Positions 932-10,967 of a stretch of DNA of 27,415 nucleotides are shown here, piece by piece. The position numbers and the translations under genes were made by a program. The notes beneath the pieces were generated by a model. That model was not told the DNA's origin. It was given only the letters and a program-made list of their open reading frames with translations, and did no database searches. Position 1 is the stretch's first letter. Each line of letters begins with the position of its first letter. The stretch spans positions 1 through 27,415 of IMG/VR virus record IMGVR_UViG_2681813230_000002. One strand, written 5' to 3'. The DNA is from a virus. Taxonomy: Duplodnaviria; Heunggongvirae; Uroviricota; Caudoviricetes.

Positions 932-2878
932 TTATTGCCCAGTGGATTTGGTCATGCCGCGATGGTCCAGCGGCGCCACACCGGCATCAATACGCACTTT
1001 CGTGGCGATACCATCAGTGGTGAAGCCTTCCTGCTGATCGATGTAAGGCGTATCGACACCGTTGAGATAAGCGACCTCGATGGTGTCGGTGCCCTTCGCG
1101 GCGGCCAGATACCAGGCTTTCGCATCCGCTTCATCCAGACGCGGTTCAGCGATGACCTCTGCAAAGTTCTGGATCGGGTTAACGATGCCGGCATTAATAT
1201 CAGCACCTTTAACACTGGCCGACTTGATAGTCTGATTCGCCAGGGTTTCCAGAGCTACAGGCACCAGCATGTAGGCTGGGCGGATATTCAGGGTACGCTC
1301 ACCTTCCTTCTGCAGGCGCATCAGCTTGCGCGCTTCGTCCAGGCTGGCCACTGAAATTGCGCCCGCGCTCAGGTTCTTGTGATCGGCATGGAACAGCGGT
1401 TTGCCGTCGGAGAGTTTTGGGTTTTTGGTCAGGATGGCGTAAACCAGATCGCCAATCGTTGCTTTCGCCGCGCGCCCCATCTTCATCGGCACGTCGGTGA
1501 GCTGGTTCAGATCGTCGTTAATGATCGCCTGGCGGGTTACAGAGAAAATTTCACCATAAGTGGCAAGTGCGATGGTTTCGCCTTTATCACTGGTAGTGAC
1601 GTACTTGTACTCCGCCCCCTCACGAACCTGTCGCAGAGAAGGGAAACCACCCATACCGACACGATGCGCCGTTTTGAAGTCTGACAGCTGGCCTTTTTTG
1701 GTCCACAGTTCGAAGGTTTCCTGGGATTCTTCCCAGCCCTGAAGCAGCGCTTTGTTCGCCACATCGAGCAGAATATTGCCAAAGTCAGAGGTGCTGTGCG
1801 TCAGCGCCAGGCCAACCATCTGCATCGGATTGTAGCTGGATACACCGATACCTTTTTCTGTCAGGGCCATGCGCGCATACTCGCGCAGCGTCATACCGTT
1901 ATAAACGTTATCCCGCTCCTGGCCTTCAAAACCGGCACGCGCCATCAGCGCCTGTCGAATACCATCCGCAACGAAATTACCATTGCCCGCATAAATATGC
2001 GGTTGTGTGGTTTTGTTGGATGGCGTGGCTGTTTTACCGAGCTCTGCCAGCAGCAAATCTTTCGCCTTATCAACGGAACAATCAGGGTCGGCCACGCACT
2101 GATTTTGCAGTTCCGTGTGTTTATTACCGAACATGGCAAAGAGATCACCGATGGCGTTAACACGGGCTTTCTGCTCAGCCAGTACCTGCGCGCGGATCGC
2201 ATTTTCATCCGGCGCCGGGTCAGTTTTTGCCTGCGGTGCCTGAGGCTGGGTAATAACCGGGTCACGCTGGGTAGTATTGCGCGGCGGGGTGATCATGTTG
2301 CGAATGCTTTTTGGCATTTTTTCAAATTCCTCAATACGTTTTGAATGGATACAGGCCATAGCCTGCAGGGATGGAGTCACCTGGTCGGCAAAACCCTTTT
2401 CAAGGCATTCGCTGCCGCTCATCCAGGTTTCGTCTTCCAGCATTGCCGCAATTTCTTCGGTGGATTTCCCGGTTTTCTGCGCGTAAGCCGGGATAAGAAC
2501 GGATTCAACCTTGTCGAGAAGATCCGCATAGTCGCGCATATCAGTCGCATCACCACCAGCAAACCCCCAGGGCTTATGGATCATCATCATCGTGTTTTCA
2601 GGCATGATGACCGGATTGCCTACCATCGCGATCACCGAGGCCATGGAGGCCGCCAGACCGTCGATATGAACGGTAATCGCCGCACCGTGGTGCTTCAGCG
2701 CGTTATAGATAGCAATACCGTCGAAGACATCACCACCGGGTGAGTTGATGTGAAGGTTGATGTGGGTGATGTCACCAAGTGCCCGGAGATCATTGACGAA
2801 CTGTTTCGCCGTTACGCCCCAGTACCCGATTTCGTCATAAATAAAAATGTCGGCCTCGCTGTTATTGCTGGCCTGCAT
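932..2878 (-). CDS. Prohead protease (ClpP/S14 family) fused to major capsid protein (Mu gpT-like HK97 fold)
   Basis: N-terminal ClpP-like block (IFIYDEIGYWG...INSPGGDVFDGIAIYNAL...MASVIAM...MMMIHKPWGF) followed by linker and about 400 aa capsid-like domain. Start moved to ATG at 2878 (MQASNNSEADIF), 13 nt after portal stop; the 764-aa track ORF from 3226 overlaps the portal gene and looks like an out-of-context extension. Confidence 0.8.
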   Translation of the reverse strand: MQASNNSEADIFIYDEIGYWGVTAKQFVNDLRALGDITHINLHINSPGGDVFDGIAIYNALKHHGAAITVHIDGLAASMASVIAMVGNPVIMPENTMMMIHKPWGFAGGDATDMRDYADLLDKVESVLIPAYAQKTGKSTEEIAAMLEDETWMSGSECLEKGFADQVTPSLQAMACIHSKRIEEFEKMPKSIRNMITPPRNTTQRDPVITQPQAPQAKTDPAPDENAIRAQVLAEQKARVNAIGDLFAMFGNKHTELQNQCVADPDCSVDKAKDLLLAELGKTATPSNKTTQPHIYAGNGNFVADGIRQALMARAGFEGQERDNVYNGMTLREYARMALTEKGIGVSSYNPMQMVGLALTHSTSDFGNILLDVANKALLQGWEESQETFELWTKKGQLSDFKTAHRVGMGGFPSLRQVREGAEYKYVTTSDKGETIALATYGEIFSVTRQAIINDDLNQLTDVPMKMGRAAKATIGDLVYAILTKNPKLSDGKPLFHADHKNLSAGAISVASLDEARKLMRLQKEGERTLNIRPAYMLVPVALETLANQTIKSASVKGADINAGIVNPIQNFAEVIAEPRLDEADAKAWYLAAAKGTDTIEVAYLNGVDTPYIDQQEGFTTDGIATKVRIDAGVAPLDHRGMTKSTGQ

Positions 2879-2891
2879 GCGGAACCACGAA

Positions 2892-4391
2892 TTACTTTTT
2901 GCGCTGGCTTTCGGACGGTGGCGCGCCCGGTTCTTTGGCTTCGGCACTGGTGCCTCCTTTATCATTGGCGGGGTCGGTGTCAAACACCAGGCCCTGTTCT
3001 CGGTTCTCGTCAACCTCCGCTTTACGGCGTGACTTAACATCATCCGGGTTGCGACCGCTGGCACGGATCCAGTCGGATTCGGTTGCCGCACCGCCGCGGA
3101 TTTGCGTTTTCCAGGCATTGGCTTCTTTAACGGGATCAATCCACGGCATAACGGGTCCCGAATAAACCGCGTTATACAGCGTGTCCATATCGATGCCTCT
3201 CGGCAGCTTGATTTCTCCGGCAGCAATAGCCATCTTCAGCCAGGCCCGGTACATTGGCCGGGTCACTGAACCGATGAACCAGTCCTGCAAAATCAGATAT
3301 CCGTCGGTTGACTCGACAAGCTCCTGCCGCTGGGCACTGTATGTGCCGTTGTAGTTTCTGGATGTACTGGAAAAACTGAGGCGACTGCCCGCAGATACCG
3401 CCCGCAGCTGTCCGTTACGAAACGACTCGAGGTTAGGGTTCGGGCGATCGGATTTAATCATCCCGATTTCTTCCCCGGCCTGCAGTTCGTCATAGAGCAT
3501 ACCGGGCTGAATCATCAGCTCGCGGTCATCGCTGCTGGAATCTGAATCGAAACTCTGTCCGTCGCCTTTTTTGATATACATGCCGAGTGCCGCAGCAATT
3601 CTTGCTGCAGTAAGCTCCGAGTCCTCGTATTCTTTCAGCGCGCTCAGGCGCATCAGGACGCCAGACAAAAGAGACGTTCCGCGGGTCTGGTGCAGGCGGC
3701 GGGTGAATTTGAGATGGAGCATGTTCTCAGCATCTATCTCTTTCGTATCGAACTGTCGCCCGGATACCGGCAGACTTTTATAGACCTGATATTTTTTAGG
3801 CCGTCCCCAGTTATCGACAAAAACGCCCTGATTAAGCTGGGTGGCTTCATCGCTGTTCATCGGTACGAAATCAGGCTCCAGCGCTTCCAGCCAGAAAGGC
3901 ACACCAGCGACCGGCTGAAGCCCATTTCCGGTACCGCGAACCAGCTGAGCAAAAACCTCGCCGTCCCTGAGCCACGTTCGCAGCATAAGACGCTCAAGCA
4001 TGGGCCGGGTAAACTGGGTTGTGACATCGGGCCTTACGGACCATTCGCCCCACTTTCTGCGGATATCAGTGGCAAGCTTTTTGGCTATCTTCCCGTTACT
4101 CAGCATCGGATGCGGTTCAACTATGATGCCCTTCGCACCCACCACCCTTTCTTCCAGCTTGTCGAAAACGCCGATCACCAGATCGTGGTTGTTATCCAGC
4201 CAGCGCGCCTGCTGCCTCAGCGAAACCGCCCCCATCTGGCTGAGCTGATCGGCTGAACGATTTTCCTTCTGGGCTTTGTGGGTACGCGTTTGCTTTACCG
4301 CCTCATACGCTTTAATAACTGCGCGGGCACGCAGGCGTGAGGCTTTCCAGCCTGGTGAAAACAGGCCAATCGCATCATCTAAAAAACTCAT
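2892..4391 (-). CDS. Portal protein (lambda gpB family)
   Basis: 499 aa; position between gpW and protease-capsid gene; start overlaps gpW stop (ATGA). Confidence 0.8.
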   Translation of the reverse strand: MSFLDDAIGLFSPGWKASRLRARAVIKAYEAVKQTRTHKAQKENRSADQLSQMGAVSLRQQARWLDNNHDLVIGVFDKLEERVVGAKGIIVEPHPMLSNGKIAKKLATDIRRKWGEWSVRPDVTTQFTRPMLERLMLRTWLRDGEVFAQLVRGTGNGLQPVAGVPFWLEALEPDFVPMNSDEATQLNQGVFVDNWGRPKKYQVYKSLPVSGRQFDTKEIDAENMLHLKFTRRLHQTRGTSLLSGVLMRLSALKEYEDSELTAARIAAALGMYIKKGDGQSFDSDSSSDDRELMIQPGMLYDELQAGEEIGMIKSDRPNPNLESFRNGQLRAVSAGSRLSFSSTSRNYNGTYSAQRQELVESTDGYLILQDWFIGSVTRPMYRAWLKMAIAAGEIKLPRGIDMDTLYNAVYSGPVMPWIDPVKEANAWKTQIRGGAATESDWIRASGRNPDDVKSRRKAEVDENREQGLVFDTDPANDKGGTSAEAKEPGAPPSESQRKK

Positions 4392-6702: not shown

Positions 6703-7202
6703 CAGTCCTCCTCAGGCTGCTCCTCCTCTTTTCCAGCGTCCTGCACCTTCTCCGCCATCTGGTCGCGCAGATCATCGATAACGCTTTGCACACGAACTAC
6801 CGCAGCAGGCGTTAAAGCACAGTCGCGCTCGAGCACATCCGGGAGGGTTTCAAGTACCATGACGACGGCTTTCGCCATCAATGAGAATTCTCGCGCCACT
6901 TCATCTGCGGGTATTAACTGCCCCGTATCCTGTTCGAACTTCAGCCTCTCGTTCTCTGCTTTCCAGTGGGACAGCCTGTCAGAAGGGGGCATATCGTCGA
7001 TGTTGGCCGAAACGGTAGGGATCATCAGTTCGGTCAGAATGTCGGTCACCAGATAGAGCTTTAACTTGCTATTGCTGCCTGGAGCAGGTTCAACATTTTT
7101 CAGTCTCGCGGCAACCGTCTGACGGTGTACGCCGGTTATCCCTGCCAGCTGGTTGATATTGAGTTTTAAAGTGGCAATTTCCTGGTCCATGATGGTGAAC
7201 AC
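6702..7202 (-). CDS. Terminase small subunit (lambda Nu1-like, N-terminal HTH)
   Basis: 166 aa; N-terminal motif NINQLAGITGVHRQTVAARL resembles Nu1 winged-HTH; acidic C-terminus; immediately downstream of cos-like site. Confidence 0.65.
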   Translation of the reverse strand: MFTIMDQEIATLKLNINQLAGITGVHRQTVAARLKNVEPAPGSNSKLKLYLVTDILTELMIPTVSANIDDMPPSDRLSHWKAENERLKFEQDTGQLIPADEVAREFSLMAKAVVMVLETLPDVLERDCALTPAAVVRVQSVIDDLRDQMAEKVQDAGKEEEQPEED

Positions 7203-7295
7203 TTTTTGAACGATTCGACATGTTGCGAAAATGGCCTCTAATTAAATCAAAGACCTGCGCACATGATGATGATGACCCTGGATCCGAAAAACTAG

Positions 7296-7350
7296 CCGTT
7301 TCCCGCGAGCGCGCCGCCCCGTGGTAGGCAACCCCGCCGGGAGGACCCAT
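7296..7350 (-). other. cos site (cosN-like); predicted 12-nt cohesive end GGGCGGCGCGCT at 7308-7319 on the minus strand
   Basis: Minus-strand sequence ATGGGTCCTCCCGGCGGGGTTGCCTACCACGGGGCGGCGCGCTCGCGGGAAACGG closely resembles my recollection of the lambda genome-end junction (GGGTCCTTTCCGG...TTACG then GGGCGGCGACCTCGCGGGTTTTCG); lies about 110 bp upstream of the Nu1-like start. Confidence 0.65.
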
Positions 7351-7427
7351 AAGAAAACACAGGTCCGACCGCCGTTTTGAATTCTCTTCTAAACGACTCT
7401 AGTTTGATTTGAGTATGCAATACGCGT

Positions 7428-7451
7428 AAAAAAGCCCCGCATAGGCGAGGC
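7428..7451 (-). terminator. Rho-independent terminator downstream of the peptidase cassette
   Basis: Minus strand reads GCCTCGC-CTAT-GCGGGGC (7-bp stem with one G-U) followed by TTTTTT. Confidence 0.55.
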
Positions 7452-7470
7452 TGGAATCAGACAGGGGGGA

Positions 7471-8373
7471 TTAAGACTGGATATTCCAAATCATTGCGTT
7501 ACCGTTATGATTTTCAATGATTTTTGCCAGTGGTGCTCCACCAAAAGAATGCATGTAGCTGTGATGTATAGTCAAAACCAAATCTTGAAGTACTTGATCA
7601 CTTTCAAGTTCGGTAACATTCAACCCAATTTTCTGCGCCTTATCAAAATGAATATGACGCGAGTGGGTATAGGTTGTGTGATGGTTGTTTAACTCTGAAC
7701 AAACATGTGTTGCTTTTGATTCTGCCTCAGGATCATTATCAAACATGCCTGTCATAAGCCAATGCTTAACAATCTCATTTGCCCATTTGATTGCTTTCTC
7801 ACACTCGCCGATGATCGTCGGGTTTAGCTTTTGAAGAATGAACTGCCACATCTGAACAGCTGCGGGATTTTGAAAAATTTCCGTCTGCGCACGATTCCAT
7901 TCTTCAATGATGGCATGGGTGGAGAAACCGTTGAACTGAGGATCAATTGGGCCAATGTTGGACTGTTTACCCATGATGATTTCATTGGCACAACATGCAA
8001 GCATAGTTCCGCAGGACATTGAAATCATAGGAACAATTGCTCTGATGTTAGTTCCAAACTTCGACCTTAAGTAATGCCCGATTGATTCCAAAGCGGCAAT
8101 ATCACCACCTGGAGTATGAAGTATCAAATCCAACCCTTTTGATACATCTAAACCATTGATGGCTGTCATCAACCCGTTCTTATCATCATCAGTCATCTGA
8201 GTAAGATGGCGTACTTCTGCACCACCATGCTGTAACCACCCTGAGTAATATGTGATTACATTTCTTCCAGTATGATTCGAAAGTTGAGATAAGTATTTAC
8301 GGCGAACCTCATCCATAGGACTTTTATGGGCGAGAGCCGTTATCTCGCCCAGTACGTCGCTCCAATTAGGCAT
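7471..8373 (-). CDS. SDH/S49-like Clp-fold serine peptidase (accessory moron)
   Basis: 300 aa with motifs LILHTPGGDIAALESIGHYL and MISMSCGTMLACCANEIIMG typical of ClpP/SppA-fold serine peptidases; AT-rich relative to flanking phage genes. Confidence 0.7.
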   Translation of the reverse strand: MPNWSDVLGEITALAHKSPMDEVRRKYLSQLSNHTGRNVITYYSGWLQHGGAEVRHLTQMTDDDKNGLMTAINGLDVSKGLDLILHTPGGDIAALESIGHYLRSKFGTNIRAIVPMISMSCGTMLACCANEIIMGKQSNIGPIDPQFNGFSTHAIIEEWNRAQTEIFQNPAAVQMWQFILQKLNPTIIGECEKAIKWANEIVKHWLMTGMFDNDPEAESKATHVCSELNNHHTTYTHSRHIHFDKAQKIGLNVTELESDQVLQDLVLTIHHSYMHSFGGAPLAKIIENHNGNAMIWNIQS

Positions 8374-8376
8374 AAA

Positions 8377-8577
8377 TCAGTACGTGTAAAGTTGATGACT
8401 TGTAGTTTGGTTTTGCTTCGATTGTGTAGCGGTACCTTGTGAGTACCAAACACCTGTGTTTCCACTCGTACTAGTTTGCTGTGCCATTACACGAGAAGCG
8501 AAGTTGTTAACAGTTTCACCAGTCAACATTTCTGCCGGTTTGATATTGTAAACATCGTAGAACTCAGCTGGGGTCAT
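8377..8577 (-). CDS. Small hypothetical protein, 66 aa, with Ser/Thr/Gln/Asn-rich C-terminus
   Basis: ORF ends 4 nt before the peptidase start; strong SD (AAGGAG) 7 nt upstream of ATG; AT-rich. Confidence 0.5.
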   Translation of the reverse strand: MTPAEFYDVYNIKPAEMLTGETVNNFASRVMAQQTSTSGNTGVWYSQGTATQSKQNQTTSHQLYTY

Positions 8578-8584
8578 AATGATA

Positions 8585-8640
8585 GCTCCTTTTATAGCGC
8601 TACATATAGTGCCTGTGCCAAGGGGGACATACTATATGTG
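8585..8640 (-). promoter_or_regulatory. Putative promoter for the peptide/peptidase cassette
   Basis: Minus strand reads TTGGCA-18 nt-CTATAA, then AAGGAG and ATG; hand-identified, weak. Confidence 0.3.
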
Positions 8641-8664
8641 CCATTGTTGTCATATTTAAATGTG

Positions 8665-8686
8665 CAAAAAGCCTCAAAAGAGGCTT
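8665..8686 (-). terminator. Hairpin plus T-run upstream of cassette (downstream of Rz)
   Basis: AGCCTC-AAAA-GAGGCT stem-loop with flanking T-run on the minus strand. Confidence 0.4.
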
Positions 8687-8947
8687 GAAAAAGATGCAAA
8701 AATACTATCTATGACGTGACTATAGCTACTTACCCACAGTTTATACAAGCCAAAAATGCTAAATTCAGATAATCCTATTCGCTGAAAAACTACACAAAAG
8801 CTACGTTCATCTTGTCATTAGATAACGTCAGTAACTTTCACTGGATCTAAGCCATTGGTGAAAAAGCTAATTGCATGATGAAGCACTGTAATGTAGCAGT
8901 TGAGGTTGTTAAATGAGAATCACCCTAACAATGTCAACGGACATTAT

Positions 8948-9484
8948 TCATTTTCGTAACTTCTCAATCTCTCGTATACCCGCCAGGTTATTGTTGCCCT
9001 TCTCAATAACAGCCAGCAAAGGTTCAATCCAGAGGACGGCCTGGCAATACGTCATTGAGCTGGCGGCAGCGGTACTATCATCGGTTGCGTTAGTGTTCCC
9101 GGTATCGGGGTGCATTGCGCTGGCACGTAAACGGTACGCGTATTTGAGCAGCCCACCAGCGACATCAGCAGGAACAGGCAGATCACAGGTCTTTTCACGT
9201 CGGAGAATCTCCCGGTATTCGATGACAGTTTTCTCAGTACCGGCATCGATCAGCGAGTTAAGGCGGTTGGCGTTCTCTGCTATCTGGTTAAACCGATTGA
9301 AGTTGAAAGCCTGTGTAGTTATCACCGTCGCCTGCAGCGCGTTATCATTACGTAATACCCGATTCTCACTCTGTTCTGTTTCAAGAGCTGAGCGGCTACG
9401 AACCAGTAATACGCTAAGCACTGCAATAATGATTACGACAGCCACCAGCAGAACCGCAACAATCGTAATTTTTCTGGGTTTCAT
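8948..9484 (-). CDS. Rz-like i-spanin
   Basis: 178 aa, N-terminal TM segment (ITIVAVLLVAVVIIIAVLSVLLV) then coiled-coil periplasmic domain; directly downstream of endolysin with 1-nt overlap. Confidence 0.7.
   Translation of the reverse strand: MKPRKITIVAVLLVAVVIIIAVLSVLLVRSRSALETEQSENRVLRNDNALQATVITTQAFNFNRFNQIAENANRLNSLIDAGTEKTVIEYREILRREKTCDLPVPADVAGGLLKYAYRLRASAMHPDTGNTNATDDSTAAASSMTYCQAVLWIEPLLAVIEKGNNNLAGIREIEKLRK
9052..9246 (-). CDS. Rz1-like o-spanin (lipoprotein), embedded in Rz in another frame
   Basis: Lipobox-like LMSLVGCSN followed by Pro-rich C-terminus (PIPGTLTQPMIVPLPP); true start may be internal to the track ORF. Confidence 0.55.
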   Translation of the reverse strand: MPVLRKLSSNTGRFSDVKRPVICLFLLMSLVGCSNTRTVYVPAQCTPIPGTLTQPMIVPLPPAQ

Positions 9485-10550: not shown

Positions 10551-10967
10551 ATGACCATGGATGTAGGATTACTTATCGCGTCCCTTAAAAACGGGATCGG
10601 CGCGCTTTCTGCTGTGCAAAGTAACGAGGTCCTGCGCGAGCGCATCGCTTTCATTGGAGAGCAGATCGACGTACTTCAAAAAGCCCATGCTGCCACCATA
10701 GCAGAACTTGCCGAGGCGAAAGCCAAGAACGTAGAACTTGAGAAGGAAATAGCGGCTTATCGGGCAAAGGATGAGTTTGTCGAGCACATGGGTGCGGCCT
10801 TTAGAAAAAATCCCGCGGGTGGGTATATCAGCGCGGTTTATTGCCCCAACTGTCTTAAACAGGTCGGTAGCGGGTTCGATGACTTTCCTTACCATTGCGG
10901 CTCCTGCGGCTGGACTTCAAGATTTGAAGGAAGGGAGATTGATAGCGTAATGAAAACCCTCCCTTAA
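10551..10967 (+). CDS. Hypothetical coiled-coil / zinc-ribbon protein (moron, opposite strand to late genes)
   Basis: 138 aa with amphipathic N-terminal helix region and C-terminal CPNC...18 aa...CGSC pair; AGGGAA upstream of ATG; followed by two hairpins. Confidence 0.45.
   Translation: MTMDVGLLIASLKNGIGALSAVQSNEVLRERIAFIGEQIDVLQKAHAATIAELAEAKAKNVELEKEIAAYRAKDEFVEHMGAAFRKNPAGGYISAVYCPNCLKQVGSGFDDFPYHCGSCGWTSRFEGREIDSVMKTLP

Follow-up and report, generated by a model that had tools for sequence, protein, structure and literature searches.

The window analysed here, the whole 27,415-nt stretch of the IMG/VR record IMGVR_UViG_2681813230_000002, is part of an Escherichia coli lambdoid prophage. 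Between its Rz-like lysis gene and its terminase genes lies an AT-rich insert of 1.37 kb (8760-7389), on the minus strand like all the late genes, which carries two open reading frames (ORFs): one for a 66-aa protein, hereafter the partner, and one for a 300-aa protein identified below as a serine peptidase of the SDH family. The GC content of the insert is 0.40 against 0.50-0.58 in its flanks, and a composition profile gave 0.37-0.45 across ~7400-9050 and 0.50-0.58 on either side. An AT-rich two-gene unit had been placed between the spanin and terminase genes by a first-pass annotation, at 7380-8900, and the borders obtained by homology are close to that range. The elements of the cassette are the following:

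7389..8760, minus strand: mobile cassette (promoter, leader, small ORF, peptidase, terminator), with borders set by homology to L093, a prophage described below
8719..8748, minus strand: predicted sigma-70-like promoter P1, with the -35 element TTGTAT at 8748-8743, an 18-nt spacer and the -10 element TATAGT at 8724-8719
8665..8686, minus strand: leader hairpin AAGCCTC-UUUU-GAGGCUU (stem 8686-8680/8675-8669), then a U tract (UUUUG)
8600..8641, minus strand: second leader helix or inverted repeat, with arms 8641-8631 and 8610-8600 and a 20-nt loop
8586..8591, minus strand: Shine-Dalgarno (SD) sequence AAGGAG of the small ORF, 8 nt 5' of the ATG at 8577, read directly
8377..8577, minus strand: small partner gene, 66 aa, isoelectric point (pI) 5.5, with a conserved C-terminal half predicted to be disordered (GNTGVWYSQGTA) and the C-terminus QLYTY
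7427..7452, minus strand: intrinsic terminator from a terminator scan, with an 8-bp GC-rich stem (7452-7433) and TTTTTT

The peptidase ORF (8373-7471, minus strand) starts 3 nt after the stop of the small ORF (8577-8377; TGA at 8379-8377) and is co-oriented with it. A tight coupling of the peptidase to a small peptide had been suggested by the first-pass annotation, and conservation of the pair was examined in 99 peptidase-bearing sequences, the window and 98 fetched loci, which come from many phyla of bacteria and from one archaeon. An adjacent small ORF on the same strand was found in 92 of them. Among 80 phylogenetically diverse loci, 70 possess a small ORF upstream of the peptidase, within -45 to +80 nt; 37 of these 70 ORFs overlap the peptidase start (the commonest overlap being 8 nt) and 28 lie within 20 nt of it. 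An iterative hidden Markov model search started from the E. coli partner converged on 39 matches out of 8,657 small ORFs, and all 39 flank a peptidase gene. Four of them are situated downstream of it, at loci where the upstream ORF is absent (L026, L052, L056 and L066, metagenome-assembled genomes of Lachnospiraceae, Spirochaetota and Thermoguttaceae, with the partner immediately downstream). Judged from these loci, the linkage is kept despite an inverted gene order and is near-universal; it is the strongest result of the analysis. Stop-codon read-through joining the two ORFs was considered and rejected: they are in frame in the window (TGA, one codon, ATG) but mostly out of frame elsewhere (-8, -17). 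No third gene conserved beside the pair was found in a survey of its neighbourhoods, where the commonest neighbours were phage integrases (4 out of 148), DNA methyltransferases and components of restriction-modification systems, with BrxL seen once. Since the neighbours are otherwise unrelated, the pair itself is taken as the functional unit.

The 300-aa protein matches PF01972 (SDH_protease) over residues 22-255 (E=8.4e-23; 81.2 bits against a cut-off of 31.3) and phrog_11747 (E=2e-138), with weaker profile matches to NfeD, SppA and head-maturation ClpP models. Its score against the NCBIfam equivalog NF047768 (Clp_like_SDH) was 95.9 bits, below the 250-bit cut-off; on these profile scores it is related to that equivalog group but stands outside it, in a ~300-aa subfamily of its own (phrog_11747). 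An AlphaFold2 (AF2) model built with 55 homologues had a pLDDT of 90 and a pTM of 0.86, and its best PDB folds were ClpP and SppA (probability 1.0, TM-score 0.35-0.41), in agreement with the Clp/SppA-fold peptidase proposed earlier; no close solved relative was found in this PDB comparison. Ser120, the predicted nucleophile, lies within MSCGT and lines up with the catalytic Ser of both ClpP and the NfeD protease 1510-N (PH1510). Residues H86, S120, D144, H237, R239, H240, H270 and H271 are invariant in an alignment of 55 sequences, and the peptidase appears to keep a predicted Ser/Asp/His set, of which the Asp and His members are candidates. The catalytic-His motif of ClpP, MIHQP, is replaced by GPIDPQ in this family, which fits the Ser-Asp-His order from which the SDH family takes its name. 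The C-terminal part is an extra helical domain of ~150 aa bearing invariant His residues. As neither a transmembrane (TM) segment nor a signal sequence was found in the peptidase or in its partner, the peptidase is predicted to be cytoplasmic and soluble.

These features separate it from better known proteases of similar fold. The NfeD/stomatin protease PH1510 1510-N and SppA (MEROPS clan SK, family S49) share with it the ClpP/crotonase-like fold and a nucleophilic Ser in a G-x-S-x-G-T-like turn. However, they are membrane-associated Ser/Lys-dyad proteases without the ~150-aa helical C-terminal domain, whereas the window peptidase is predicted to be soluble and belongs to the SDH (Ser-Asp-His) family, and their sequence similarity to it is marginal (E=0.003 to 1e-5). 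ClpP and the phage prohead ClpP-like proteases also have their fold in common with the window peptidase, ClpP chains being its best PDB matches, but besides the altered His region it displays no evidence of a ClpX/ClpA partner motif. Prohead proteases gave weak profile matches only, and the prophage's own head protease is, as the first-pass annotation had recognized, a separate fusion to the capsid gene (932-3226). Full-length relatives with 49-55% identity were found in Planctomycetes, Acidobacteria, Firmicutes, Actinobacteria, Nitrospirae, Saccharibacteria and a methanogen. A search of 1.84 billion representatives of 50%-identity clusters yielded 350 matches at E<=1e-30 and 3,651 at E<=1e-3. 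The MPNW N-terminus is kept across phyla. Therefore, the 281-aa start at an internal Met, given by the Prokaryotic Genome Annotation Pipeline (PGAP) in some RefSeq records (e.g. L001 12172-13017), is too short.

The 66-aa protein belongs to phrog_25714 (E=4e-44) and had no match in Pfam, NCBIfam or PADLOC, nor to any DNA-binding domain. PGAP leaves its gene unannotated in the record identical to the window and in several others. This omission is contradicted by the low dN/dS of the small ORF (0.06 against an 82% variant and 0.14 against Mangrovibacter), a measure by which it is a real gene under strong purifying selection. In the AF2 model, residues 3-9 and 23-36 form helices and residues 38-66 have a pLDDT below 50. 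The most conserved blocks of the partner fall in this half predicted to be disordered, and a C-terminal half that is conserved yet disordered suggests folding on binding. All Enterobacterales partners end in (L/M)Y(S/T)Y-COOH. Across loci, the partners are ~55-75 aa long with a median pI of 5.5 (10 for control ORFs), and most keep an N-terminal 'xxFxxLGL/FNIxxEE' helix. There are, in addition, at least three further partner families, none of which HMMER links to the E. coli partner or to each other; the partner of a satellite-like E. coli island (L102, see below) could not be aligned to that of the window. Thus the peptidase is ~50% identical across phyla while its partner diverges past detection by HMMER. 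A universal C-terminal motif was sought among the partners and rejected. The strict form, hydrophobic-x-Y-[ST]-x-[STN]-[ST], occurs in 0 out of 53 members of the other families and is limited to the E. coli-type family; a looser pattern is enriched in the other families (25% versus 4.5%) but was defined post hoc, and for these two reasons no universal motif is claimed.

A small ORF adjoining a peptidase, together with an extreme C-terminus, (L/M)Y(S/T)Y, that is kept in Enterobacterales, might be expected of a peptide-signal system or one resembling ribosomally synthesized and post-translationally modified peptides, in which the peptidase would cut the 66-aa precursor to yield a peptide that is bioactive or serves communication, comparable to arbitrium. 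We regard this as highly improbable: neither protein has a signal peptide or a TM segment, the neighbourhood has no conserved gene for a transporter, a receptor or a modifying enzyme, and the partner families are too divergent for a common receptor.

The region upstream of the pair is conserved as well. The first-pass annotation had credited the unit with an SD sequence and a promoter-like sequence of its own. The SD sequence is indeed there (AAGGAG, 8591-8586, 8 nt before the ATG of the small ORF), but the sigma-70-like scan match at 8660-8631 was discarded as a candidate for the main promoter for lack of conservation among variants, and the conserved promoter is further upstream (8748-8719). 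The P1 block, TTGnnA ... (GC)TATAGT/TATATT, is kept in 11 of the 12 enterobacterial variants compared, despite differences of up to ~50% in their coding sequences, and P1 is the predicted promoter of the cassette, conserved with it. The unit had also been described as bracketed by terminator hairpins. This holds for the downstream one, which is called by the scan and whose stem and T run are kept in the L093 variant, with changes in the loop only. It does not hold for the hairpin at 8665-8686: since the conserved P1 stands further upstream, this hairpin would be a leader element inside the transcript and not an insulator. It lies ~30 nt downstream of P1, is terminator- or attenuator-like, and was not called by a simple terminator scan.

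Both leader helices vary in a manner suggestive of conserved pairing. The hairpin is kept with compensatory changes in 11 of the 12 variants, 4 of its 7 pairs changing on both sides, and 92% of its cells are paired over the 12 variants. The second helix, which ends 8 nt before the SD sequence, has 11 pairs with 87% of cells paired; 3 of the 11 change on both sides, and the central pair is GC, AU or CG depending on the variant. For the whole named structure, 88.9% of cells pair in the 12 variants, compared with 26-53% when the partner columns are slid. RNAalifold, run unguided, gave the same two helices, and the second is also present in the minimum free energy fold (z=-2.0). The 12 variants thus have a common upstream architecture, in the order P1, hairpin with U tract, 11-bp helix and SD sequence. 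The covariation comes from just 12 related sequences and is to be taken as suggestive. The hairpin could serve for attenuation or as a stabiliser, and the second element could be a palindromic operator; for the leader as a whole, a short leader RNA and an operator were considered too. No Rfam family reached threshold in 7200-9100.

The surrounding genes of the prophage are arranged as follows:

11940-11125, minus strand: Q antiterminator
10306-10028, minus strand: holin
10056-9484, minus strand: lysozyme
9484-8948, minus strand: Rz-like spanin with an embedded Rz1-like ORF
8947-8578: non-coding stretch
7202-6702, minus strand: DUF1441 small-terminase-like gene
6702-4600, minus strand: TerL, followed by the portal gene
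3226-932, minus strand: ClpP-major capsid fusion

The limits of the cassette within this arrangement were defined by comparison with two other prophages. L093 is a different lambdoid prophage, with lysis and terminase genes that differ from those of the window; it displays 80% nucleotide identity over exactly 8760-7389, in the same slot between Rz and terminase, and the homology ends at both borders. In the prophage of E. coli Nissle 1917, the backbone resumes on the terminase side at window position 7347 with 99.5% identity; other genes occupy the slot between lysis and terminase genes, and a 70%-identical copy of the pair is found between Q and holin instead. From the exact span of homology in L093 and the different content of the slot in the Nissle prophage, the cassette is concluded to be a 1.37-kb mobile unit. 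We infer that it is dispensable for the phage because close prophages do not have it in this slot (the Nissle prophage, with the same terminase, has its copy elsewhere). It has the attributes of a moron, namely (i) a discrete insert, (ii) a deviating GC content, (iii) a promoter and a terminator of its own and (iv) presence or absence among related phages. Like the lambdoid morons (lambda bor, lom, stx slot) and prophage superinfection-exclusion or defence genes, it is rich in AT, brings its own promoter and terminator, occupies the Q-holin or lysis-cos slot and is present or absent among otherwise near-identical prophages. It differs from them in content, a protease pair and not a membrane lipoprotein or toxin, and in having a conserved terminator-like hairpin in its leader, downstream of the promoter. 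The Q-holin slot of the window, the other classical moron slot, contains on the opposite strand (10551-10967, plus) an ORF of 138 aa with a coiled-coil-like N-terminus, a C-terminal CxxC...CxxC zinc-ribbon-like motif and no Pfam match, which may be a second accessory gene of the prophage.

The region of the cassette (window 7300-9000) is identical in strain FAM21845 and nine other complete genomes. A near-identical cassette is present in 45 of 5,426 complete E. coli genomes, and some variant of it in 80-86. The accessory behaviour expected of a moron in the earlier annotation is evident from the positions of the pair. In Enterobacter, Yersinia, Serratia, Klebsiella aerogenes, E. coli Nissle 1917 and other E. 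coli it occupies the slot between Q and holin, whereas the window and L093 have it between the lysis genes and terminase. It adjoins the integrase in Pseudomonas simiae, lies past the tail fibre in Proteus, and is found at the edge of a mobile genetic element (MGE) by resolvase, RadC and Toprim genes in Methylomonas. It is also carried by a Mu-like Shewanella phage, by Porphyromonas phages (beside HicAB), by Gordonia phage BeeGee and by the satellite-like island L102, and some loci are in contexts without visible phage genes. On this distribution, the pair is a unit that moves between the moron slots of different prophages.

Some of these carriers have further genes of note near the pair. In the Nissle 1917 prophage (L092; NZ_CP058217.1 2188910-2191591), which has the window's terminase genes, the 70%-identical pair in the Q-holin slot is followed by a small ORF and then by a DNA methyltransferase gene. 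L102 (E. coli APEC20/16, NZ_CP127297.1, 10584-11723) is an island resembling phage-inducible chromosomal islands (PICIs), with an integrase, an Icd-like protein, a RepA helicase and PerC; its pair consists of a 74-aa ORF and an SDH peptidase 46% identical to that of the window, and the island has a HEPN gene at its 5' end and gapS1 at its 3' end. In a Klebsiella aerogenes prophage, the pair-bearing late region also encodes an anti-defence sponge protein of the Acb2/Tad1-hairpin family (L109 9136-9420); its presence there would place defence and counter-defence morons on one phage.

The cassette is within the late operon and co-oriented with it, in either the Q-holin or the lysis-terminase slot, and will therefore be transcribed by Q-modified polymerase. 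This position could point to a role in the lytic cycle or in counter-defence, a protease made late degrading a host (defence or stress) protein or processing a phage protein, with the partner as adaptor or specificity factor; a fast-diverging partner beside a conserved enzyme would suit a specificity adaptor engaged in an arms race. However, a promoter and a terminator of its own are conserved with the cassette. Other locations of the pair are prophage ends by integrases, the satellite-like island, the Methylomonas MGE edge and contexts without visible phage genes, and close prophages such as that of Nissle 1917 do not have it in the slot, so that it is probably dispensable for the phage. We therefore consider a lytic-cycle function improbable.

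A known anti-phage system offers a closer parallel. The DefenseFinder system FS_HP_SDH_sah, with its gene SDH_sah, is named among the findings in oral phage contigs (PMC13532340), which fits the occurrence of 45%-identical homologues in Porphyromonas phages. Its gene content appears to correspond to that of the window, where a PF01972 protease is preceded, 3 nt upstream, by a co-oriented small 'HP'-like gene. Both consist of a small hypothetical protein and a PF01972 ClpP-like protease on phage-related mobile elements of Enterobacteria; the difference is that the window copy occupies a lambdoid prophage moron slot and not the accessory region of a PICI. SDH_sah is the name that PF01972 formerly had in Pfam. 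A hypothetical protein and an SDH_sah protease, borne by a PICI, reportedly reduced the plating of several phages (Fillol-Salom et al., Cell 2022), and L102 may be an element of the sort from which the system was originally reported. We know of no published mechanism for FS_HP_SDH_sah, and our literature searches on SDH/PF01972 proteases in an anti-phage or PICI context found no mechanistic paper. The Tai system (PMC11364771) was considered as a match and rejected, as no protease is mentioned for it. The pair thus looks like an addition to a known kind of anti-phage system and not like one that is new in kind.

The layout of the cassette also recalls toxin-antitoxin (TA) and abortive-infection modules of types II and III (ToxIN), in which a small first gene is coupled to an enzyme. 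The disordered tail of the partner, the attenuating hairpin in the operon and carriage by MGEs add to the likeness; in ToxIN, a terminator between antitoxin and toxin sets their ratio. However, the 'toxin' of the cassette would be a protease, its partner is acidic without a DNA-binding domain, and there are no RNA repeats. Neither component matches TA families in Pfam, NCBIfam, PADLOC or phrog, so that the likeness to type II systems is one of layout only. An addiction or stabilisation module of this sort, with a protease toxin and a labile small antitoxin, would serve to retain the MGE and would have no specific anti-phage role. Such a module would account for the translational coupling of a small upstream gene to a larger enzyme, as in type II TA systems, for the disordered C-terminal half of the partner, for the horizontal spread of the pair through many MGE contexts and for its position next to HicAB in a Porphyromonas phage. 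Nevertheless, we think it unlikely. Most type II antitoxins differ from the partner, which is acidic and matches no DNA-binding domain, and the listing in DefenseFinder implies that the system has an anti-phage phenotype. Many TA modules are in any case abortive-infection systems, so that this explanation overlaps with the one that we favour.

That favoured explanation, to which all three rivals are less well supported, is that the cassette is a mobile two-gene prophage moron which most likely protects the lysogen against other phages, with the partner acting as inhibitor, bait or substrate of the protease; we hold it with fair, though by no means full, confidence. In this scheme, the effector would be a cytoplasmic ClpP-fold serine protease of SDH type, and its obligate partner the small acidic protein translated just upstream, with a helical N-terminal part and a disordered, conserved C-terminal part. 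Acting like a trans-encoded pro-peptide or a type II antitoxin, the disordered tail would bind to the protease and serve as inhibitor, bait or pseudo-substrate. Precedents for this proposal exist: the protein encoded by the operon partner of the NfeD protease PH1510 is cleaved by that protease, type II antitoxins have disordered, protease-labile tails, and the active sites of SppA bind the enzyme's own C-termini (cf. the title of PDB 4kwb). Infection by a foreign phage would then remove, titrate or cleave the partner, and the freed protease would degrade a phage protein or an essential host protein, so that phage production stops. Expression would be driven by the cassette's own promoter, with the terminator-like hairpin of the leader keeping the basal level low in the lysogen, and Q-antiterminated late transcription would read through the cassette during lytic growth of the prophage itself.

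Several observations weigh against this explanation. The identity of the pair with the validated FS_HP_SDH_sah system is judged probable from the name of a shared domain. Physical contact between partner and protease, inhibition, and cleavage of the partner are inferred, and no evidence explains how the resident prophage escapes its own system. In diverse bacteria, the genes around the pair show only a weak enrichment for defence functions. Two metagenomic proteins, P0226 (L111 3001-3756) and P0196, look like in-frame fusions in which a partner-like N-terminus precedes the peptidase, but both are truncated and the contig of P0226 is probably frameshifted, so that they may be artefacts or pseudogenes; a GmrSD-like gene is located nearby on L111. 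Finally, the first-pass annotation had proposed a processing, toxin-activation or anti-phage module. Its anti-phage part fits FS_HP_SDH_sah, but the models of PADLOC-DB v2 match neither the peptidase nor the partner, most likely because that database does not include the system. DefenseFinder's profile for the HP component may well miss the window's partner, since partners diverge beyond the reach of HMMER.

A more specific version of the mechanism can be put forward tentatively, and with considerable doubt. The partner would be a trans-encoded, fast co-evolving 'pro-peptide' that plugs the protease with its disordered tail, of which the invariant (L/M)Y(S/T)Y-COOH forms the end in Enterobacterales; loss or displacement of the plug would sense the phage, and the attenuator hairpin and second helix would set the dosage. 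This would amount to an abortive-infection switch executed by a protease, a new mechanistic type. The near-universal hypervariable partner, the loci with swapped gene order and the conserved structured leader seem to be undescribed in the literature that was searched.

If the pair is a defence system, ~1.5% of complete E. coli genomes, that of the probiotic Nissle 1917 among them, have it at work as a moron of lambdoid prophages, and it is of relevance to phage therapy and strain engineering; the copy in Nissle 1917 may matter for the phage resistance of that strain. For the family as a whole, the comparative data go beyond a catalogue entry and provide a testable route to the mechanism of a protease-based immune system. 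The protease is unusually well conserved, with ~50% identity between Enterobacteria and organisms as distant as Planctomycetes, Firmicutes and an archaeon. Its partner changes until it is no longer recognizable, but retains a similar size, position and acidity and a disordered tail, a pattern to be expected of a sensor or inhibitor in an arms race.

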